NCBI GenBank assembly: GCA_049974845.1
Contig: JBNGCP010000006.1
Coordinates: forward strand, 22,386-86,385
DNA: 64,000 nucleotides
Source: Anaerolineae bacterium
Lineage (GTDB): Bacteria; Chloroflexota; Anaerolineae; B4-G1; SLSP01
Reading direction: 5' to 3'
A program made the position numbers and the translations under genes. Under the pieces are notes generated by a model that was given only the letters and a program-made list of their open reading frames with translations, was not told where the DNA came from and searched no databases. This document shows positions 23,459 through 32,724 of the stretch, one piece after another. Numbering within the stretch: position 1 is the first letter of the stretch; each line of letters starts with the position of its first letter.

Positions 23459-24202
23459 CTAAGGCTTGTGCGCGCGGATGAGAAAGAAGGGCAGGTGCGC
23501 GACCTGCGACCACGGCCCCGAACGAGTAGCGGCAGCACTCCGGATCTCAGCCAACCTCGACCGCTCTTCCACCGTCAGAGGCAGGTCCTCAAGGTAGTCA
23601 AAGCGCGAGAGAGCGGGCGGAAAAAGGGTATCGAAGAGCGAGATGTGCACGCTAAACCCTCGCTCCGCGAGAAGCCCGGGCAGCTTTCGACCGACATAAG
23701 GATCGGCGCCGGCACGCGTCAGCGCGCTGATCCATAGCGGACGGCTGCGGATCTCAGGTGGATGCTCGATCATCCCATCGTAGTCGGGTTCCAGCGCGAC
23801 GAAGGCCCCGCCGGGCTGCAACACGCGCCAGATCTCATCCACCGCGAGGGACAAAGGGCTGACCCACAGCAGGGTCACCTGCGAGAACACCAAATCAAAG
23901 ACCCCATCGGCGACCGGCAGCCGGGTGGCATCCGCGGCAAGCTTCGAGGTCCCCCTGGGACTCTGCCACGATCGCAGCGCCGCAAACGCAAGGTCTAATG
24001 CGACCACCCGCCCCCGCGACCGTCGTCGAAGCTCCGCAGCAACCGTACCGAACCCAGTCCCGAGGTCGAGAACGCGGTTGCGGCGAGCCACGTGGACCCG
24101 CCGCAACAAAACCGACCGAGCCGGCGCAAGCCATTCAGCCTGCTGTGCCATCAGCGCCGGCTCCGGCAGCGCAAAGCTGAGGCCGCTATTCATTCGCGCC
24201 AA
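23459..24202 (-). CDS. Class I SAM-dependent methyltransferase
   Basis: It has the SAM-binding motif I (VLDLGTGFGTV) and motif post-I (VVALDL). It is the last gene of the minus-strand rSAM cluster. Confidence 0.75.
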   Translation of the reverse strand: MARMNSGLSFALPEPALMAQQAEWLAPARSVLLRRVHVARRNRVLDLGTGFGTVAAELRRRSRGRVVALDLAFAALRSWQSPRGTSKLAADATRLPVADGVFDLVFSQVTLLWVSPLSLAVDEIWRVLQPGGAFVALEPDYDGMIEHPPEIRSRPLWISALTRAGADPYVGRKLPGLLAERGFSVHISLFDTLFPPALSRFDYLEDLPLTVEERSRLAEIRSAAATRSGPWSQVAHLPFFLIRAHKP

Positions 24203-24208
24203 CGCACG

Positions 24209-26113
24209 CTAACGTCCGCCCCCCGCGCAGGCGCAGGCACACGCACAACCGGCGCAGGCGCACGCGCAGCTGCTGCGACCACCACCACCGCTCCCGCCGC
24301 TGCTCTTTGAGGCCTTGGACATCGCCTCAAAGACGTCACCGGTGACACGATCGACGCCACTAAGGTCGACGAAACCACCCTTAGCACCGGGGATGTTCAT
24401 CGAGCCAGGCAGAACCGCCGCAGCCATGCTGCCCATCGTCGTCTCCGCCCAACCGGAAAAAGAGGCCGCGACGTCGCCGAAGGAGGTCCGCCCCCCGCCA
24501 CTGGGGCGCGCGGTCGGCGCCCCGCCGCCGGCGCCCGAGGTCACGGGTCCGCCGGTCGGGCGCGCCCACATGGGCCAGTAGTGGTAACCTCCATGCGTCA
24601 AGACCGTCGGGTAATTGTCGTTCATCATAACCCAGGGCAGATACTTATCGAGGTATTGCTCGCGTTCCCGGACCTCACCCATCTGTCTGGCTTGCTCCAT
24701 CGCCCGCGAGATCACGCGTTCGTAGTACTCCCGGGTCTGCGCGAGGTCGAACCCCTCCATCTTGGCAGCGGTGGACGTGATCAGGCCCTCCATCGCGGCG
24801 GTGAAATCAATCTTCTCCACCGGCTTGTTCGGATTGCGCTCCAACTGATCCAGGAAATCTTGCTCGTAGGCGTGAATGACCGTGCCCGCCTGTTGAGCCG
24901 CCGTTTGACGGGCATTGTGGCGCTTCTTCTTCGAGCGTCGCAGGTCGGGATCGTCCCACATCTTGAATGCATCGTTGACCTTCACGGTCAACGGATCCGG
25001 CTTCACGAGCGTCACGATGCCTTTTTCCAGCAGACCAAACATGGCCAGGGTGAGAATCTTGTGGAGCGGCAACTCCAACAGGATGGCAGCCTCAGGTGCC
25101 GTGAGCCCGCGCTTGATACCGCCACCCTCCACCTGGGCGATGGGTGGCAGATAGTCGTGGGGCTTTTTCTTCAGACGGACTTCATTGAAGATGACAAGCG
25201 CAATCAGCACCGGAATAGCTGGCAGCATCAGAATGGGCGCAGCAAAGAAGAGCAGGATCGCGCCGCCCGCGAGGATAGCAAAGACGGTGCAGCCCGTCCC
25301 GCCCGAGAACCGGAAGAAGAGCAAAGCCAGGAGGCCCACATTGATGGCCCCAAGGATGAGCCGGGCGCCGGGATTGTCGGCAAGCCACCGGTTCACCAGT
25401 TCGATCAACGTCATGCGCTCGACGCGTGTCATCACCCGCTGCGGGAAAGACACCCCGACCATGCGCGGCCCTGTGAGGCTGACATCCTCCCATTCCCAGA
25501 GGACAACGGTGTGGCCCTGGAACAAGGCCCTGTCTGTAAAGGGCTCCTGCTGATAAAGGGCTTCCTCCGGTTCCACGCCTTCAGGCAAGTGAACGGCGAT
25601 TGCAAGCTCGCTCGCACCACGAACGGATTCCTCGTCAAACCAGGTGGGCGTGATGCGGAACGAGGCAAAATCTCGGTTCGTCGTGTCCTGATAGACCATA
25701 TCCGGCATCGTGGCCTCGAAGTGGAGCGTCGCCGTCTCACCCGGTGAGATGGCCATTTCGCGCAGGTGAATCTCGACGCCGATGTCGACATACTCGGAGG
25801 TCCGAATATCGTTCAAGGTGACGCCATCGATGCTGGCTGTCATGTTGTCGATAGTGTAGTCCCTGTGCGGCAGACCAATGTCGACAATGTCGATGGGCGA
25901 TCCCTGGTTTTCGAACGTGATGTCATAGACCAACCGGGCCGAGGCATCGGGTTGGACGTAGACCTGCAATTCCATTCTCGGCACAGCGAACACGTAGCTC
26001 TGTGCGCTTGCCGGATGGATGCTCGCCCCCAGCAACACAAGCACGACAAAGAGTGACACTACCAAAGAGAGGCGTTTAGACATATCCGTGTTCACCTCCG
26101 TGCGATGCTCCAT
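24209..26113 (-). CDS. Large membrane protein A, DUF2207-like architecture, with C-terminal Gly-rich/Cys-Ala tail (…GGSGGGGRSSCACACAGCACACACAGGGR)
   Basis: It is 634 aa with a signal/TM, a ~230-aa extracytoplasmic domain, a TM cluster, a ~300-aa cytoplasmic domain (YHYWP) and a Gly-rich segment ending in a 7-Cys alternating Cys-Ala tail. It is a paralog of 26140..27915. Confidence 0.7.
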   Translation of the reverse strand: MEHRTEVNTDMSKRLSLVVSLFVVLVLLGASIHPASAQSYVFAVPRMELQVYVQPDASARLVYDITFENQGSPIDIVDIGLPHRDYTIDNMTASIDGVTLNDIRTSEYVDIGVEIHLREMAISPGETATLHFEATMPDMVYQDTTNRDFASFRITPTWFDEESVRGASELAIAVHLPEGVEPEEALYQQEPFTDRALFQGHTVVLWEWEDVSLTGPRMVGVSFPQRVMTRVERMTLIELVNRWLADNPGARLILGAINVGLLALLFFRFSGGTGCTVFAILAGGAILLFFAAPILMLPAIPVLIALVIFNEVRLKKKPHDYLPPIAQVEGGGIKRGLTAPEAAILLELPLHKILTLAMFGLLEKGIVTLVKPDPLTVKVNDAFKMWDDPDLRRSKKKRHNARQTAAQQAGTVIHAYEQDFLDQLERNPNKPVEKIDFTAAMEGLITSTAAKMEGFDLAQTREYYERVISRAMEQARQMGEVREREQYLDKYLPWVMMNDNYPTVLTHGGYHYWPMWARPTGGPVTSGAGGGAPTARPSGGGRTSFGDVAASFSGWAETTMGSMAAAVLPGSMNIPGAKGGFVDLSGVDRVTGDVFEAMSKASKSSGGSGGGGRSSCACACAGCACACACAGGGR

Positions 26114-26139
26114 CAGAACCCAACGCTATACCCCCGACC

Positions 26140-27915
26140 TCAGCGCCCGCCACCGGCACAGGCACAGGCGCAGGCGCAGCCTGCGCACGCACAGGCACAA
26201 CTGCTCCCCGAGCCTCCCCGCGAGACGGTCACACCAGTGGACGGTTTGCTGAGCGTGGTCGGCAGAATGGCAGCTGCCATCCCGCCCATCGTCGTCTCCG
26301 CCCAGCCGGCAAAGGAAGCCGACACATCACCAAAGGTGGTGGACGGTCGCCCTGATCCACCCGAGACAGCCCCTCCACCGATGCTACTTCCGGCAGTGCT
26401 CACCGTACCGCGAGCTTGTCGCGCCCACACGGGCCAGTAATGGTAACCGCCCAGCCTCAGGGCCGGCCTGTAGTTCGGCCGCATCATGACCCAAGGGAGG
26501 TACTTATCGAGATAGGCCTCACGCTGCTCGATCTCGCCAATGCTCGCAGCCTGCTCCATCGCACGATCGATCACCCGACGATAGTACTCCTGGGTATCGG
26601 AGAGATCGAAACCCTCCATCTTCGCTGCGACGCCGTCGACGAGCTTCTGCATCGGGTTGACGACGGGCAGCTCCTTGACCGGCTTGCCGGGATGGACCTC
26701 GATCAGGTCCAGGAACGGATGCTCGTACTCGTGGATCACGGTGCCCTTCTGTTGGGCCACCTGACGGCGATAGCGCTTCCGGCTCTCCGCGTCCTTTAAT
26801 TCGGGCTTGCCTTCCACCTGAAAGTCGTCGACGACCTCCAGGGTGAGAGGATCTGCATCAGTCTGGCGCACGAGTCCCTTTTCCAGCATTCCAAAGACCA
26901 CCAGCCCCAGCACCTTGGTTAGGGGCAGCTCCAGGACGATCGCGGCTTCCGGAGCCGTAAGTCCGCGCTTGATGCCGCCGCCCTCAACTTGTGCGATCGG
27001 GGGAAGATAGTTGGGTTTGAGGCCGCGGATGACGGCGCGAACGATGACGAAGATAAAGAAGGCGGGAATGGCAACGGGCAGACAGAACATAAGGATCGCC
27101 CCGATCACGGGAAGCACCCCGCCCAACCATCGTCCAAGCAAATCCCAGAAGGTGACCTCAATGACGTTGGTCATGCCACGTCGGGGGAACGAGACGCCCA
27201 CCCGATAGGCCTCCGTCAACCGGATGTCCTCGTACCGCCAGATCGCCACGACTCGCCCCTCATCGTCCAGCACCTTGTCGTCGAAAGGCTCATCCTGGTA
27301 GAGAACCTCGTCGAGCTCGATACTCGGCAGCGTCCTGACCCGAATCTCGACGTCACTCGTGCCCTGCACGAGTTCGCCGTCGAACCAGGTTGGCGTGATC
27401 TGCAGGGAAGCGTTCTCCTCGTTGGTCGTATCGGCATAGACCATCTCAGGCGAGTCAAACTCGAGATGCAGTGTCCCCGTCTCGCCCGCCGGAATAGCGT
27501 ACGGCCCTAGATGGATCTCCACGCCAACGTCGATGTATTCTGAAGGGCGGATGTCCGACACCGGATTGCCGTCGATCGTCGCCACCATCTGATCGACGTC
27601 GTAATCGGCGTTCGGCGTGCCGATATCCACAATGTCGATGGGATCTCCGGAGTTCTCGAACGTGATGTCGTAGACGATGTGGGCGGAGCCATCGGGTTGT
27701 ACAGTTGCACTCAGCAATAGCTCGGGCACGGCGAAGCGGTAAGTCTGCACGTAGGGGCGCGCCAGAACAGTGCCGGCGCCCGAGCCGAGAAGACCCAGGA
27801 GCACAGCCAAGGCCACGACCAGCGCCACAGCCCGCCTTCTGATCGTCGGGGCCACCGTCCTCTCGCGCGTGTCCACCCTTCCGTGGGAGTGTCTATGACC
27901 GGCTGGTCGGGTCAT
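26140..27915 (-). CDS. Large membrane protein B, paralog of A, with identical C-terminal tail SSCACACAGCACACACAGGGR
   Basis: The track ORF extends to 27933, but the probable start is ATG 27915..27913. That ATG overlaps the TGA of the upstream rSAM-like gene by 1 nt. It has the same domain order as protein A; the last 21 aa are identical although encoded by different codons. Confidence 0.7.
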   Translation of the reverse strand: MTRPAGHRHSHGRVDTRERTVAPTIRRRAVALVVALAVLLGLLGSGAGTVLARPYVQTYRFAVPELLLSATVQPDGSAHIVYDITFENSGDPIDIVDIGTPNADYDVDQMVATIDGNPVSDIRPSEYIDVGVEIHLGPYAIPAGETGTLHLEFDSPEMVYADTTNEENASLQITPTWFDGELVQGTSDVEIRVRTLPSIELDEVLYQDEPFDDKVLDDEGRVVAIWRYEDIRLTEAYRVGVSFPRRGMTNVIEVTFWDLLGRWLGGVLPVIGAILMFCLPVAIPAFFIFVIVRAVIRGLKPNYLPPIAQVEGGGIKRGLTAPEAAIVLELPLTKVLGLVVFGMLEKGLVRQTDADPLTLEVVDDFQVEGKPELKDAESRKRYRRQVAQQKGTVIHEYEHPFLDLIEVHPGKPVKELPVVNPMQKLVDGVAAKMEGFDLSDTQEYYRRVIDRAMEQAASIGEIEQREAYLDKYLPWVMMRPNYRPALRLGGYHYWPVWARQARGTVSTAGSSIGGGAVSGGSGRPSTTFGDVSASFAGWAETTMGGMAAAILPTTLSKPSTGVTVSRGGSGSSCACACAGCACACACAGGGR

Positions 27916-29222
27916 CACCCACCTCGGGCCCATCCTTCTGGATCACGCGGGCACGCAGCCGCGCAAATGGCAAGGCCAGGGCAGACCTCGCAGCGGGTCG
28001 GCGCCTCCACGCGCTCGCGATAGTCGCGAAAGACCGCGTCGTTCCAGATCGTGTCCCATGAGTCCCGCAGAAGGTTACCCGCACTCCGGTAGGGCCCACG
28101 GGGTGGGATGACCTCACCGGTGGGCTCGATGCGGACGGCCACGTCCCCAGAGCATCGCGGCCCCTGCAGAATCTGGTCCATCAACGACCTGTTTGGATCC
28201 CTTTCCACCGGCGGATCCCAGATGAACCGTGCGTTGGCCATATCAGCGGTCTCCTCGACGGTCGCAGCCACCTGAGCCATGCCCTCGCGGCTGAAGATAC
28301 CCTCGGCCCGCGCGAGCTGTGGATCCGTCGTCGGATAAGCGATAAAGGAGAGATTGTCAGCGCCATTCGCGATGAGCACGTCCACCGTCGCGTTGATGCG
28401 ATCGAGCGTCGCCTGGACCAAGGGGATCTCGGCCACCGCCGCGATCTGATAAGTCTCCAGCCAATCGAGCACGCTCTGTGCCATAAGGAAATCGCCCTCG
28501 CCGCAGAGGCTATCGTGAATCTCTTGGTCGGCCGCAGCATAGAGGAAGGTCACGTGGTCGACGCCGGTCTGACGAAGGTCGGGCAGGAATCCTTCCACGG
28601 CCAAGGTTGTCGCACGTCCCCTGACACCGGCGATCATGCCCAGATCTTCCGCTCGCTCCACAACCCTTAGCACATCGGTCGGCTCACAGCCGTATGGGAC
28701 GAGGATCGTCACGTGCGGGATCCCCACTTCCCAAAGGCGGTCGAGAATGGGTATAATCACCTTCGGCTCCACCAGTGGCACCGTCGCCTGCAGCGGAGCG
28801 ATGAGCTCGGCAGCATAGGGGGAGAGCGAGGCATCCTCCAGATTGAAGACCGGATACGTATCACCGGGCGCCCTAAGTCGCTCAATGAGAGCGTGCACCT
28901 TCGCGATGTCCCCGCGTACGATCTCCTCCTTGGCGCCGGAGAAGTGCGCTCTCAACCTCTCAACGATCTCGTCGGGGGTTCGGCCCTCAAGCAGGCCCTT
29001 GGCAATGACCACACCCGACGCCGTCAAACGAGCGGCAGCCATCGCGTTGGCGATCAGCATCCCGCTGCCATCCTTCTCCACCCGCAGGTGGAATCGGGCA
29101 AACGCGTCGTCGGTCTCCTGCATCACGTGATAGAGCCCGGGCTCTACGGGCGCGGTGGGTTCGGCGCGCTCAAAGGACAGCAAGCGCTTCAACCAGTCCT
29201 GGGCCATAGACGACCTCCTCAC
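27915..29222 (-). CDS. Degenerate radical-SAM/SPASM-like protein (CxxxCxxC lost, SPASM Cys cluster retained)
   Basis: It is 435 aa and aligns along its length with the 30581..32086 rSAM protein (PGLY...RV.EDGSG N-domain, IPHVTIL core). Where the paralog has YACNNACPHC it has no Cys triad. It retains the C-terminal GPRCSGD...CEVCPGLAICAAACP cluster. Confidence 0.65.
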   Translation of the reverse strand: MRRSSMAQDWLKRLLSFERAEPTAPVEPGLYHVMQETDDAFARFHLRVEKDGSGMLIANAMAAARLTASGVVIAKGLLEGRTPDEIVERLRAHFSGAKEEIVRGDIAKVHALIERLRAPGDTYPVFNLEDASLSPYAAELIAPLQATVPLVEPKVIIPILDRLWEVGIPHVTILVPYGCEPTDVLRVVERAEDLGMIAGVRGRATTLAVEGFLPDLRQTGVDHVTFLYAAADQEIHDSLCGEGDFLMAQSVLDWLETYQIAAVAEIPLVQATLDRINATVDVLIANGADNLSFIAYPTTDPQLARAEGIFSREGMAQVAATVEETADMANARFIWDPPVERDPNRSLMDQILQGPRCSGDVAVRIEPTGEVIPPRGPYRSAGNLLRDSWDTIWNDAVFRDYRERVEAPTRCEVCPGLAICAAACPRDPEGWARGG

Positions 29223-29225
29223 AAC

Positions 29226-29942
29226 CTATGCTTGTTGGGGTTGTTGGTATTTTCTTTCGAACAGATCGGGCTCGTAAGCCGCACGTCGCCCCGGACATTC
29301 CCCCCGCGGGCAGAGCTGGCAGCTCTCAAACCGCTCCTCCGTCGGGAATCGAATGCCGGAGATGGTCTTGTTTGGGATCATCAGAAAGCTCTCGGTCAGC
29401 TGCACCCCAATCGCCGCCTCGGGATCCCCGAGAATCCGGAAAAGGGGACGCTGCTGCCGGATCGGCCAATCGGCCAAGGAGCCCGGAGCCATCGTCGACG
29501 TGCGTCCCAAGGCATAGCACTCGTACAGATGGGCGTTAAGCGCCTGCGTCGCCGCCCCCAGCGCGGCCTCCTTGATCGCGTCAGCCCAGTAACGATAGAG
29601 CATATCGTCGAGGCCGTCACTCCAGGTCTGCAGTTCCGCCCCGCACGTGGCGATATAGACGAAAACCCGATGAGCCACCGCAAGGTTGACTCGCAATACG
29701 CGGCTGTGCAGCCTCACGCCGTCGACGGTCACACTCTCGTCGGACCTGTCGTCGACGTAGGCGAGCTTGTACATGGCCTTAGGCCTGGCGATCGCCGCGG
29801 CTGTCTTGAGCAGCCCGGCAAACTCGGCAAGCTGCTGGCTGCCGTCCTTGAGCCTCAGACGTTTGGCCAATGAGCCAAGGTCAGGCTGAAAAACAATGTC
29901 ATCGAGTATGTAAGGTCTCTCGCCGTTATCGATTGCGTTCAT
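29226..29942 (-). CDS. MetH activation-domain-like (AdoMet-binding) protein with C-terminal CxxCxxxxC motif
   Basis: It is 238 aa. The segment LTESFLMIPNKTISGIRF and the preceding PGSLADWP resemble the conserved core of the B12-dependent methionine synthase reactivation domain (E. coli LTESFAMWPGASVSGWYF). The C-terminus is SCQLCPRGECPG. Confidence 0.5.
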   Translation of the reverse strand: MNAIDNGERPYILDDIVFQPDLGSLAKRLRLKDGSQQLAEFAGLLKTAAAIARPKAMYKLAYVDDRSDESVTVDGVRLHSRVLRVNLAVAHRVFVYIATCGAELQTWSDGLDDMLYRYWADAIKEAALGAATQALNAHLYECYALGRTSTMAPGSLADWPIRQQRPLFRILGDPEAAIGVQLTESFLMIPNKTISGIRFPTEERFESCQLCPRGECPGRRAAYEPDLFERKYQQPQQA

Positions 29943-29986
29943 TGTTGTCTGCTATGGTTCCGTTCTGTGCGTGAAAGGTTCTCGGG

Positions 29987-30523
29987 TCACGATCGGTGGG
30001 CCACCAACAGCCCTCGAATCAGGGCCAACAGCCCCAGGCCGATGAAGAGGATCGGCCACCCGATGAAGTCCAGGCCAAGACCGCTGATATTCAGGATCAG
30101 TTCAAAGAAGACCAGGCCCACGAGAAACATGATCAGCCCGATGTTCACCAGGGTCGAACCGGTCCGTATGGCGCTCTCCCTACGCTTGCTCCAACCATAG
30201 AGCATCTCTGCCAAGCCTATACCAGTTGGGGTGATCAGCGCCCACACGTAGGCCCAACTGGTCCAGTGCCCTGTGACACTTTGATAGAGCAGCACCAATC
30301 CTACCATCGTGACAATCCCGCTCAACATTGCGAAAGGCTCACTCAAGGGCGTATCGGCGGCAAGGGCGAAGAGGAAGATCAAGACGCCGGGCAGAATGAC
30401 AAAGAAGGGCCACAGGAAAGCGCCGATGTTGAGCTGCAAAAACTGCCCGACCAGGGCCAGGACCCCCAGGACGATCAGAGCAATACCGAGTGCCCGAACA
30501 AACGCTCTTGGTCCCTCAAACAT
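29987..30523 (-). CDS. Integral membrane protein (5-6 TM), unknown function
   Basis: It is a 178-aa, very hydrophobic protein inside the rSAM cluster. Confidence 0.55.
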   Translation of the reverse strand: MFEGPRAFVRALGIALIVLGVLALVGQFLQLNIGAFLWPFFVILPGVLIFLFALAADTPLSEPFAMLSGIVTMVGLVLLYQSVTGHWTSWAYVWALITPTGIGLAEMLYGWSKRRESAIRTGSTLVNIGLIMFLVGLVFFELILNISGLGLDFIGWPILFIGLGLLALIRGLLVAHRS

Positions 30524-30580
30524 GCCTTTCCTCCTGCGTGATTTGGAAACCCGGCATCCAAAGCGCCCCGCGAACCTGCC

Positions 30581-32086
30581 CTAGCGTCGCGTCCCCGTCA
30601 GGACGCCCTCCTGTGTCGCAGATCGATCGTCGGTGAATGACACGACGCGGCCCGACCCCCGTCGGGTAGGGCGAGAACACCCGCGCTCAGCCGCCCGAAT
30701 CCCGGCCCGCGCTTCTCGCTCCAACCGGCATCCCCCCCCGCACATCTCCAGGTCCGGACAATCCCAGCAGGCCTCCGGCAACCCCGCGGCTTGCGGGTCC
30801 TCCTCACGATTTCGGAAGCTGAGGAAGAGCTCGCTATTCCATATACTCTCCCACGGATCGGCAAGGATGTTGCCTGCGGTGACGTAGTAAGACTGACAAG
30901 GGAGGACGACGCCGTTGGGCTCGATGCAGATCGAGTATTCGGCTGCATTGCAGCGCTTGGGCGGCAGGCCCAGCGCCACCGGGGACAAGCGGCAGTAGTC
31001 GGTCACCGTGTACCAGAGGAACCGCATGTTGAGCCGCTCGGCCTCGTCCCTCACCGCAGCGAGCAGGGCCGCCATGTCCTCAGCCGGAATGGCAGCGGGC
31101 GTACTCGTCCCTCCTCCGGCATGGATAATACCGTTCATCGCGAAGGTCTGTAGACCTAACTCATGGAGAAACCTGACGGTATCGAGGACGTGATCCTGAT
31201 TTTGCCGGGTAACGGTCGTATTGGTGATGGTGTGTATGCCGGCGTCCAGCGCGCTCTGAATCCCCGCAACCGTCTCTTCGAAAGCGCCCTCCACACCCAC
31301 CATCTCATCATGGACGGAGCGGTAGCACGACTCCAGCGTGATCTGCACGTGGTTGAGCCCTGCTGCTGCCAGCGAGGTCGTCAACACTCGATCCGCGAGG
31401 CGACGTCCGTTGCTGTTCATGCCGACGATCAGACCGAGTCCGTCGGCATACCGAACCAACTGCGCCAGGGCGGGATGGAGTGTCGGCTCACCGCCGGTCA
31501 GGATGACGTGAGGAATGCCGATGTCCAGGATCCGATCGAAGACCCGCATCCAGTCGCGCGTGGTGAGCGAAGCCATCGCGAACCGTTCCTGCTCGTTATA
31601 GCAATGTGGGCAGGCATTGTTGCAGGCATAGGTGAGCGCGACGTCCACCTTATAGGGCGCCGTGACGGGCGTGCTGAAGATCGGCTGAAAATCCACAAGC
31701 GGCCCTAGGGCGCACGTCGGACAGATATTGTCGGTCTCTCGCAAACGCCGAACCATATCATACATCGTGGCGACCGCCTCCGAGAGCTCTCCTTTCGTGA
31801 CACCGCGGTACCGACGAATCATCCGGTCTCGCGCCTCGGCCTGCGGGACGTCGTCCAGCGCTAGCTTGACCATCTCGACGGCAGTCGCATTAAGATGGAT
31901 CACGTCGGTGACGTCGATAAAGAGCACGCCCGAGCCATCCTCGTTGACGCGTAGATGCACGCGGCGCTGCCCCCCGTCCAAGACCAAGGGATAGCTGTAG
32001 AGGCCGGGAGCCATTGCCACCGACCCAGGCTGCAACAGAGCCCGGACGGTAGTCATCAGACGATGCCACTCCGACGATAGATTCAT
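30581..32086 (-). CDS. Radical SAM/SPASM-domain maturase with N-terminal extension
   Basis: It has the canonical CxxxCxxC (YACNNACPHCYNE), a GGEPTL SAM-binding motif and a C-terminal SPASM region (CQSYY...CWDCPDLEMCGGGC). The ~120-aa N-terminal domain is shared with the degenerate paralog. Confidence 0.85.
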   Translation of the reverse strand: MNLSSEWHRLMTTVRALLQPGSVAMAPGLYSYPLVLDGGQRRVHLRVNEDGSGVLFIDVTDVIHLNATAVEMVKLALDDVPQAEARDRMIRRYRGVTKGELSEAVATMYDMVRRLRETDNICPTCALGPLVDFQPIFSTPVTAPYKVDVALTYACNNACPHCYNEQERFAMASLTTRDWMRVFDRILDIGIPHVILTGGEPTLHPALAQLVRYADGLGLIVGMNSNGRRLADRVLTTSLAAAGLNHVQITLESCYRSVHDEMVGVEGAFEETVAGIQSALDAGIHTITNTTVTRQNQDHVLDTVRFLHELGLQTFAMNGIIHAGGGTSTPAAIPAEDMAALLAAVRDEAERLNMRFLWYTVTDYCRLSPVALGLPPKRCNAAEYSICIEPNGVVLPCQSYYVTAGNILADPWESIWNSELFLSFRNREEDPQAAGLPEACWDCPDLEMCGGGCRLEREARAGIRAAERGCSRPTRRGSGRVVSFTDDRSATQEGVLTGTRR

Positions 32087-32316
32087 AATTCTCTATGTAT
32101 GTTTACGTACAAAGCGGCGCCGGGTTGCAGCTCGGCCTTGACACAGAGCACCCCCGAGCCGTAACCGAGGCTGCGCCAACCTTCCCCCCAGCGATGTCCC
32201 CGACGTCTAAGTCGGCATTAACGGACTGATCCACCTGTTGAACGCGAGAGAAAAACGGAGGAGATGGGGGTCACCGCGTTGGCAGGAGCGCGACAGAAAG
32301 AGCACGAGCGCAGCGT

Positions 32317-32724
32317 TCACCACTTTGGGGCTTCTTCGATCTGGTAAGAGGCCCCACAGTACGGACACTCGACGAAAATGGCGCCCGCCTTGACCTCAAG
32401 GTTGCCCTTGCTCAGGGCGCCGCCACAGGACCGACACTTCAGCTGCTCTAGCTGAACATCGCCCGACAGGTCGATCTTCTGTACGTGGGTGTGTTCCTCA
32501 TGTTTGGGGCGAACGCGCGTCAGATAGATGAGCACGCCGGCCGCAGCGAAAAGGATCAGACCGACGACGATGCGTATAACCTGTCCCTGCGATCCCACCA
32601 CAAACATAAACCCGAAAAAGGCCACCACCGCGGCAATCAGGTAGGTCAAGAGCTCCATCGCGTTCTCCTCCACAGGCGTTTTGGGTTGCAGCAGGTAGTA
32701 TAGTCGATCCGCCATGCTCGTCAA
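32317..32724 (-). CDS. Small membrane protein with C-terminal zinc-ribbon (CxxC-x15-CxxC)
   Basis: It is 135 aa with two TM helices and then CRSCGG...CPYCG. It is the first gene of the minus-strand cluster; its start may be the internal Met (MELLTYL). Confidence 0.55.
   Translation of the reverse strand: MTSMADRLYYLLQPKTPVEENAMELLTYLIAAVVAFFGFMFVVGSQGQVIRIVVGLILFAAAGVLIYLTRVRPKHEEHTHVQKIDLSGDVQLEQLKCRSCGGALSKGNLEVKAGAIFVECPYCGASYQIEEAPKW

Follow-up and report, generated by a model that had tools for sequence, protein, structure and literature searches.

A putative radical-SAM/SPASM maturation system linked to the Cys-Ala tails of large membrane proteins in Anaerolineae and other bacteria

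Radical S-adenosylmethionine (rSAM) enzymes with a SPASM domain are known mainly as maturases of short peptides that are made by the ribosome and modified after translation (RiPPs), and the cases in which a whole protein is modified amount to a handful (QhpC, CrpA). CrpC of Methanococcus voltae, an rSAM/SPASM enzyme with an N-terminal RiPP recognition element (RRE), installs ranthionine thioethers on the Cys-rich protein CrpA, which is a soluble 28.8-kDa protein having ten 17-residue repeats with C-x-x-Q/D (PMC13692751). Another rSAM/SPASM enzyme, QhpD, crosslinks QhpC, the gamma subunit of quinohemoprotein amine dehydrogenase (PMC10114670). Here, a gene cassette is described which lies at positions 23459-32724 of a 64,000-nucleotide stretch of contig JBNGCP010000006.1 of an Anaerolineae bacterium (hereafter the window), and in which an rSAM/SPASM enzyme, its degenerate paralog (pseudo-rSAM) and a methyltransferase are encoded together with two large membrane proteins ending in an alternating Cys-Ala tail. 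Judging from the sequence, the cassette is probably a dedicated maturation system, in which the enzyme would modify the Cys-Ala tail, most likely by thioether crosslinks, with methylation to follow.

The system is set here within a known kind, namely the rSAM/SPASM-RRE maturation of Cys-rich ribosomal substrates. What appears to be new is the candidate substrate class, the predicted cytoplasmic tail of a polytopic membrane protein, and the conserved partner set, consisting of a dead rSAM paralog, a methyltransferase and a Zn-ribbon membrane protein. As in the case of CrpC/CrpA, an RRE-bearing rSAM/SPASM enzyme would act on the C-terminal Cys-rich region of a full-size protein, the substrate being a proposed one here; however, a polytopic membrane protein bears the region in question as a short (CA)n tail, and the three conserved partners are additional to the CrpC/CrpA pair. 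The CrpC family TIGR04463 (so named in PMC13692751) is not among the best 25 of the enzyme's 58 NCBIfam matches. The likeness to QhpD/QhpC lies in intra-protein Cys thioethers (proposed for the present system) on a protein that stays in a functional complex. QhpC, on the other hand, is small and periplasmic, offers Asp/Glu as acceptors and has a quinone cofactor, and its system comprises no (CA)n motif, membrane protein, pseudo-rSAM or methyltransferase. The best sequence matches are provided by SkfB, AlbA, StsB and PqqE/MftC, which similarly combine an RRE or a PqqD partner with an rSAM domain and auxiliary clusters, yet the sactipeptide maturases and PqqE/MftC work on short leader-core substrates and the enzyme scores far below the family cut-offs. 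The pseudo-rSAM recalls the haloarchaeal pseudo-SAM/SPASM proteins (TIGR04347), in which the Cys residues of the SAM cluster are likewise lost, and in the window's clade it keeps those of SPASM; it falls, however, far under the 525-bit cut-off, carries an RRE of its own and is paired with an active paralog, and in the second clade described below the dead paralog has lost the SPASM Cys as well. Finally, the tail proteins share with DUF2207/YgcG-type proteins an N-terminal beta-sandwich ectodomain, one or more transmembrane segments and a Gly-rich cytoplasmic tail, but the DUF2207 model finds no match in them, and neither the (CA)n-GGGR motif nor the rSAM linkage has been described for DUF2207. 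The motif string, as well as DUF2207 and radical SAM together, occurs in none of the approximately 8.4 million papers and preprints searched. Thus the opinion of a first-pass annotation, made from the sequence of the window alone, that this architecture is not a described RiPP or post-translational modification family was borne out by Pfam, NCBIfam and literature searches.

The product of 30581..32086 (minus strand, 501 aa) matches Pfam Radical_SAM (PF04055; 4.8e-25) and SPASM (PF13186; 6.4e-10) and looks catalytically competent by its motifs. The sequence CNNACPHC (CxxxCxxC) is found at residues 155-162 (nt 31601-31624); in 52 orthologs C155, C159 and C162 are 100% conserved, accompanied by eight conserved Cys at 365-453 (SPASM region, nt 30728-30994) and by C122, and the SPASM sub-motifs CX9-15GX4C and CX2CX5CX3C are present in 60 of 67 orthologs, in keeping with the earlier description of this protein as a canonical rSAM/SPASM enzyme. 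Its nearest solved structures by sequence in the PDB are SkfB (2.8e-18) and PqqE (3.8e-18). All NCBIfam equivalog models give scores far below their cut-offs (the best being 129 bits versus 500), and the models of known sactipeptide and ranthipeptide maturases (AlbA, SkfB, StsB, ACGX, SCIFF-type and the like) score 61-129 bits against cut-offs of 265-850, with TIGR04340 of the ACGX system at 61 bits versus 400.

The second rSAM-like protein (27915..29222, minus strand, 435 aa) shares 27% amino acid identity with the enzyme (BLASTP 1e-36), the cluster motif falling in a gap of the alignment. It lacks CxxxCxxC but retains CEVCPGLAICAAAC; a partial SPASM motif, CX2CX5CX3C, is present at residues 411-424. 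The same holds for its orthologs, among which CxxxCxxC was detected in 0 of 59 and CX2CX5CX3C in 56 of 59. The protein, already taken for a degenerate paralog in the first-pass annotation, is on the basis of this motif loss regarded as catalytically dead. Both proteins begin with an extra domain of roughly 120 aa (approximately residues 1-125 of the enzyme, nt 31712-32086), for which the role of a recognition element had been suggested. When the first 130 residues of 56 paralogs, active and dead, were combined into a profile, it matched TfuB1, the RRE of a lasso-peptide system (6jx3_B, E=5.9e-6), and 39 of the 56 N-domains match PF05402 (PqqD) with a best E of 1.1e-7; PqqD matches were also obtained for the N-domain of the pseudo-rSAM. 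By these profile matches, both paralogs carry a PqqD-like RRE, and this implies that the substrate is a peptide or a protein. Since neither paralog contains a B12-binding domain, class B (cobalamin-dependent) radical-SAM methylation was discarded.

The candidate substrates are the two large proteins, here called tail protein A (26140..27933, minus strand, 562 aa from the probable start at 27828) and tail protein B (24209..26113, minus strand, 624 aa from the probable start at 26083). Both terminate in SSCACACAGCACACACAGGGR, the tail itself, CACACAGCACACACAGGGR, being encoded at nt 26143-26199 and nt 24212-24268, respectively. It consists of Cys, Ala, Gly and Arg only, with seven Cys at alternating positions, and its identity in the two proteins, noticed at first sight of the sequence, was confirmed from the translations. 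Meanwhile, the proteins as a whole are 52% identical. At the level of codons, 16 of the 21 differ synonymously and none non-synonymously between A and B, so that selection acts on the tail peptide, and its identity in A and B stems neither from a recent conversion of the genes nor from a repeat in the DNA. In the 4.3-Mb genome, (CA)3GGG is confined to the two tail sites, and a control pattern is found nowhere.

The conservation of the tail extends far beyond this genome. A word-based search with tail protein A gave more than 1000 homologs, all annotated as "hypothetical" and mostly from metagenome-assembled genomes of Anaerolineae; about 117 of the best 120 (47-100% identity) end in CACACAGCACACACAGGGR or in a variant one CA unit shorter. 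The search of 1.84 billion representative proteins with a tail-protein profile yielded 1129 clusters (at 50% identity) at E<=1e-3, including 412 at E<=1e-30. Among the best 149 of these, 110 end in exact (CA)nG(CA)mGGGR and approximately 17 in near variants, for instance with S, VS or DS as a spacer or with (CA)5GGGR; what remains are fragments truncated C-terminally. The columns of the tail are invariant in an alignment of 44 sequences from several phyla, 42 of which had been picked by the tail pattern itself, and the Ala positions are invariant across phyla, too. The tail is therefore under strong selection at the peptide level, and the motif ranks among the most invariant short motifs seen across phyla, on a whole membrane-protein superfamily. 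It could still be argued that the tail is a functionless low-complexity or repeat artefact (of a TGYGCN hexanucleotide) whose proximity to the rSAM genes is coincidental, since between 2 and 5 CA units are present, a variation to be expected under some replication slippage. The synonymous codon differences, the occurrence of the pattern twice in the genome with the control found nowhere, the retention of the tail in homologs down to 27% identity and its perfect co-occurrence with the enzyme in the genomes sampled (see below) speak against such an artefact, and the idea is effectively refuted.

The association with the enzyme was traced in Chloroflexota by searching 301 genomes with the sequence of tail protein B, the tail pattern not being used. 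The search revealed one close ortholog and approximately 18 distant homologs of 27-32% identity, and 14 of the 15 homolog regions retrieved belong to a second clade, in which the order of the genes is permuted and runs Zn-ribbon protein, tail protein, rSAM enzyme, degenerate rSAM paralog and methyltransferase. In this clade 2, the degenerate paralog, which has neither CxxxCxxC nor the SPASM Cys, is absent from two loci, and the methyltransferase was not seen in two loci and is sometimes present in two copies; the tail reads (CA)4G(CA)3GGGR, with 5+3 and 3+3 variants. The clade 2 loci (L135-L153) include that of "Ca. Brevefilum fermentans" (L137), and one cassette (L135) additionally contains a second methyltransferase, a DSP-type phosphatase-like gene and an unassigned 337-aa ORF. 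When the same genomes were searched with the enzyme (E<=1e-60), orthologs were found in 24 of 301, all of them at E<=1e-100, that is, in 20 genomes already known from the first search and in four more, where the gene 5' of the enzyme codes for a tail protein ending in (CA)4G(CA)3GGGR. Hence a tail protein is encoded in 24 of the 24 enzyme-bearing genomes, which span at least six families, a figure that is not a formal statistic and overstates independence because the genomes are related; in the remaining 277, neither query found a match at the thresholds applied.

For a broader survey, one genome from each of 185,579 species was screened for a degenerate DNA pattern encoding CACAGCACACACAGG. 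At least 120 sites were obtained, belonging by record titles to Chloroflexota, Planctomycetota (Thermoguttaceae, Pirellulales, Brocadiia), Armatimonadota, Hydrogenedentota, Myxococcota or "delta" proteobacteria, "Zipacnadia", Elusimicrobiota, Nitrospiraceae, Sumerlaeota and Clostridia. Apart from the Clostridial type, the motif is in the matches listed always the exact C-terminus of homologs of tail protein B of at least about 600 aa. The neighbourhoods of the pattern loci, each of up to 8 kb, were compared by BLASTP of the window proteins against six-frame ORFs. The order Zn-ribbon protein, rSAM enzyme, pseudo-rSAM, tail protein and methyltransferase recurs in Planctomycetota, Armatimonadota, Myxococcota and Anaerolineae, and a separate pseudo-rSAM is missing from the loci of Hydrogenedentota, Elusimicrobiota and Nitrospiraceae. 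An rSAM ortholog is present in 24 of the 31 loci having at least 3.8 kb 5' of the tail gene, and a methyltransferase in 62 of the 90 having at least 900 bp 3' of it. As for the seven loci with no adjacent rSAM gene, all five genomes checked (5/5) encode a Zn-ribbon-plus-rSAM unit elsewhere, which in three of them, all Thermoguttaceae, has the pseudo-rSAM beside it. A wide occurrence of the tail motif in genomes devoid of the rSAM genes had been named beforehand as the observation that would speak against a link between the two, and no such genome was found among those checked.

The most reduced form of the association is found in Clostridia. In the Clostridial-type loci, an rSAM/SPASM gene (462-514 aa) abuts or overlaps the gene of a protein of about 320 aa, which starts with a transmembrane segment at its N-terminus, continues with a beta-rich ectodomain, another transmembrane segment and a linker rich in Gly, Arg and Tyr, and then carries the motif. 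Here the motif is internal, ...(CA)4GGGRAGC[SAT]xK[DN]FY, and in the 1536 clusters (at 90% identity) that a separate search assigned to this type, the first Cys block varies and (CA)4GGGR is kept. One such module (L045:2470-4838) adjoins the dcw cluster, another (L158:6539-9063, Hungatella hathewayi WAL-18680) lies between argG and argH, and neither a methyltransferase nor a Zn-ribbon protein gene was found near the module in these two genomes. The two contexts are unrelated, and with no further partner near either module, the enzyme and the motif protein constitute the irreducible pair. The short type, with an internal motif (GGGRVGCSRK...), was also seen on a contig labelled Anaerolineaceae (L026); this could reflect transfer from phylum to phylum, a binning error or a wider spread of the short type.

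In the AlphaFold2 model of tail protein B (mean pLDDT, the predicted local distance difference test, of 84), a signal peptide is followed by a beta-sandwich (32-214), three transmembrane helices (238-302), a winged helix (329-369), a helical bundle (379-495), a Gly-rich disordered linker and the tail, which is disordered as well (pLDDT of about 30). Tail protein A has a comparable layout, with a signal peptide, a beta-sandwich ectodomain, a membrane segment, a predicted cytoplasmic winged-helix and helical domain, a Ser/Gly linker and the tail. The beta-sandwich of tail protein B resembles Ost1/ribophorin I and the N-domain of M1 aminopeptidase (Foldseek, 1.8e-7). Its predicted cytoplasmic half (24209-25156) comprises the winged helix and the helical bundle, modelled with a pLDDT above 90; when this domain alone was compared with the PDB by Foldseek, no match was found (best E=2), and according to the model it may represent a new fold. 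Outside the tail, the tail protein has no conserved Cys or His, and its other domains are strongly conserved; conserved segments, TSFGDVAASFAGW... and DLSGxDxVTGDxFxAL, lie upstream of the linker. By hydropathy and the positive-inside rule, the C-terminal half including the tail would be located in the cytoplasm, which is where radical-SAM enzymes work.

As regards the family of these proteins, Pfam and NCBIfam searches with the window tail proteins, whole or tail alone, gave no family match at E<=10; the sole Pfam match, to the Phlebovirus G2 C-terminal domain, was sub-threshold (4.5e-4) and judged spurious, and the tail-only query reached only TIGR04135 (FibroRumin) with E=0.033 and 14.2 bits versus a 45-bit cut-off. 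They had been labelled "DUF2207-like" at first. This label finds no support in the hidden Markov model, as PF09972 (DUF2207) does not match either window protein, nor the relatives from L012 and L045, at E<=10, but it agrees with the fold and with the annotation of relatives: these are recorded in public databases as hypothetical, YgcG or DUF2207 (some of clade 2, some Clostridial), some are named DUF2207 in UniRef, and one distant Clostridial-type relative has a precomputed PF09972 match. Two variants of the architecture were also encountered. Five clade 2 tail proteins of 766-838 aa (P0284, P0291, P0294, P0295, P0302) possess two tandem beta-sandwich ectodomains, and a metagenomic protein of 948 aa (P0250) appears to join the pseudo-rSAM (residues 2-322) and a tail protein (350-948) in a single chain. 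The latter was set aside as evidence, for it is a single case of odd topology and may be an artefact of assembly or a frameshift.

Taken with the conserved linkage, this architecture suggests how the proposed maturation may proceed. The tail proteins, consisting of an extracytoplasmic beta-sandwich, one to three transmembrane helices and a cytoplasmic domain, would present the disordered (CA)2-5-G-(CA)3-4-GGGR tail on a flexible Gly/Ser-rich linker at the inner face of the membrane. The active enzyme, probably in a complex with its dead paralog, would apply 5'-deoxyadenosyl-radical chemistry to the Cys-Ala tail, and the PqqD-type domains of both proteins would dock on the tail protein. The most likely products may be thioether crosslinks from Cys sulfur to carbon, of the sactionine type, onto the C-alpha of Ala or Gly, after which the methyltransferase would act on the product, for instance by methylating thiols left free or the C-terminal carboxylate; the Zn-ribbon membrane protein would be a conserved partner. 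In this scheme, the tail as substrate, the complex of the two paralogs and the target of methylation are all inferred. The thioether is favoured by analogy with the sactisynthase SkfB, the best PDB match, with QhpD acting on QhpC and with CrpC acting on CrpA; even granting that the tail is the substrate, this chemistry is proposed tentatively, as the front-runner among several options and short of an expectation. Since Ala, Gly and Arg are the only possible acceptors in the tail, the reaction could well be another one, for instance S-C-alpha linkage or epimerisation, among others. A more far-reaching version, which we consider possible but rather doubtful, is that the tail is the precursor of a new membrane-tethered post-translational structure, built by the heteromeric active/dead rSAM pair, which has two RREs, and methylated afterwards; it may be envisaged as a thioether ladder, as an alternating D/L segment or as a thiolate-metal cofactor.

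Several points weigh against tail maturation by thioether crosslinking. The tail has no Asp, Asn, Gln or Thr acceptors typical of ranthionine motifs, and no CxPxR/CxAxR motif recognised by anSME-type enzymes; for want of such a C-x-P/A-x-R motif, a formylglycine mechanism of the anSME type was also dismissed as unlikely. The eight Cys of the SPASM region could fully ligate both auxiliary clusters, so that the open substrate-binding iron proposed for some thioether synthases is not evident. Furthermore, the Clostridial enzymes gave no PqqD match, the Chloroflexota genomes underlying the co-occurrence are related, as said above, and seven clustered thiols could bind metals unmodified.

The last of these points leads to the main rival, namely that the tail stays unmodified, as a thiol cluster that binds metal or Fe-S or senses redox state, and that the rSAM pair is linked to the membrane protein for another reason. 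The tail protein could then serve as a membrane dock or as a donor of electrons or sulfur, and the real substrate would be, for example, the ...PKW C-terminus of the Zn-ribbon protein, a small molecule or a lipid. Such a role is in line with the seven alternating Cys and the missing classical thioether acceptors, with the absence of conserved Cys or His elsewhere in the tail protein and with the strikingly invariant C-terminus of the Zn-ribbon protein, in which Lys and Trp are adjacent. However, a metal-binding CxC normally tolerates a varied x, and here Ala is invariant across phyla; the RRE domains imply a peptide substrate; the Clostridial module consists of the enzyme and the tail protein only and includes no Zn-ribbon protein; and a dedicated methyltransferase suggests covalent tailoring. 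The thiol cluster is thus disfavoured by the invariance of Ala, the RREs and the Clostridial pair, and we hold it to be unlikely.

Alternatively, the tail could be a RiPP core that is cleaved off after modification and released as a 19-residue product, with the protein of about 600 aa acting as a giant leader or scaffold. A disordered C-terminal segment following a Gly-rich stretch, together with RRE-bearing maturases, does mirror the logic of RiPP biosynthesis, and long leaders are known from precursors of the NHLP/Nif11 type. Yet all versions of the cassette lack a conserved protease or exporter, the Clostridial motif is internal and followed by a conserved AGCSxKDFY, and the remaining domains of the large protein are under strong conservation, all of which makes release of a peptide quite improbable. 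A conventional small precursor is not apparent either: the one sizeable intergenic gap of the cluster (230 bp) and nearby frames, scanned for ORFs of at least 20 aa with the shorter gaps left out, hold no Cys-rich small precursor, and in agreement with the first impression Cys-rich sequence is restricted to the tails of the 562- and 624-aa proteins.

Should maturation of the tail be confirmed, it would represent a new substrate class, probably a new crosslink chemistry, and the first functional handle on DUF2207/YgcG-like membrane proteins; if a membrane-tethered structure is formed, a new class of protein-derived modification with a new cellular function would be at hand. The cassette occurs in many anaerobe-rich phyla, and its Clostridial form in Clostridia of the human gut. 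The hypothesis is directly testable, as there are cultured carriers, among them Hungatella hathewayi (tail protein WP_006779027.1), Sporobacter termitidis DSM 10068 and "Ca. Brevefilum fermentans".

In the window, the genes discussed above belong to a run of eight co-directional, tightly spaced ORFs on the minus strand, all of which were recovered as the first-pass annotation had listed them. From the Zn-ribbon gene to the methyltransferase gene, they are separated by 230, 57, 44, 3, -19, 26 and 6 bp. The adjacency of the eight genes, which had been described as one unit, therefore stands, but the unit is not conserved as a whole: the conserved core comprises five of the eight genes, those for the Zn-ribbon protein, the rSAM/SPASM enzyme, the pseudo-rSAM, the tail protein and the methyltransferase. 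The last gene of the cassette (23459..24202, minus strand) encodes this class I SAM-dependent methyltransferase (Methyltransf_11, 2.1e-18). The MetH-activation-like gene, the A-type tail paralog and the gene of a 178-aa membrane protein are lineage-specific. The polytopic protein of 178 aa (29987..30523, minus strand), recognised by hydropathy, has no Pfam or NCBIfam match and is absent from all 117 pattern-found loci; its sole occurrence is in the nearest relative (80% identical), whose cluster comprises the same set of eight genes, and it is considered a lineage-specific accessory. The MetH-activation-domain-like accessory protein (29226..29942, minus strand, 238 aa) lies just under the threshold of PF02965 (Met_synt_B12; 3.6e-5, 23.8 bits versus a gathering threshold of 25) and carries a C-terminal CxxCx4C motif. 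Many of its 2038 homologs, at 56-82% identity, have a precomputed PF02965 match. In the pattern-found loci, its gene is present in 5 of 117, which represent an Anaerolineae subclade with two tail paralogs, and the A-type paralog is likewise confined to close Anaerolineae relatives (5/117 loci).

The first gene of the cassette, in clade 1 (that of the window) as well as in clade 2, codes for the Zn-ribbon membrane protein (32317..32724, minus strand, 135 aa as listed). According to an alignment of 52 homologs and hydropathy, it possesses two transmembrane helices, the motif IDL[ST]GD and a zinc ribbon of the form CxxC...CxxC, and its C-terminus is invariant (YQ[IL][ET]E.PKW). The adjacent Lys-Trp of this terminus recalls the Lys-Trp crosslink motifs of other rSAM/SPASM systems, and by this analogy the protein could be a second substrate. 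The DLSG.D motif is common to tail proteins of the B type (24290-24330, ...VDLSGVDRVTGDVF...) and the clade 1 Zn-ribbon protein (32430-32470, ...IDLSGDV...). It was considered as a general shared docking site of the RREs and rejected, because the clade 2 Zn-ribbon protein has DLPG and the C-termini of the clade 2 tail proteins (last 60-70 residues) are devoid of the motif. Three of the starts given in the first-pass annotation were revised, the likely true ones being 32658 for the Zn-ribbon gene and those stated above for tail proteins A and B. In the case of the Zn-ribbon gene, the listed TTG start at 32724 is probably wrong, as homologs begin with MEL/MEI (MELLTYL... at 32658) and the gene of the nearest relative encodes 113 aa, which is the probable length here, too. 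In scans for promoters and terminators, no signals significantly above shuffled controls were obtained. Promoter-like hexamers are located at 32724-32697.

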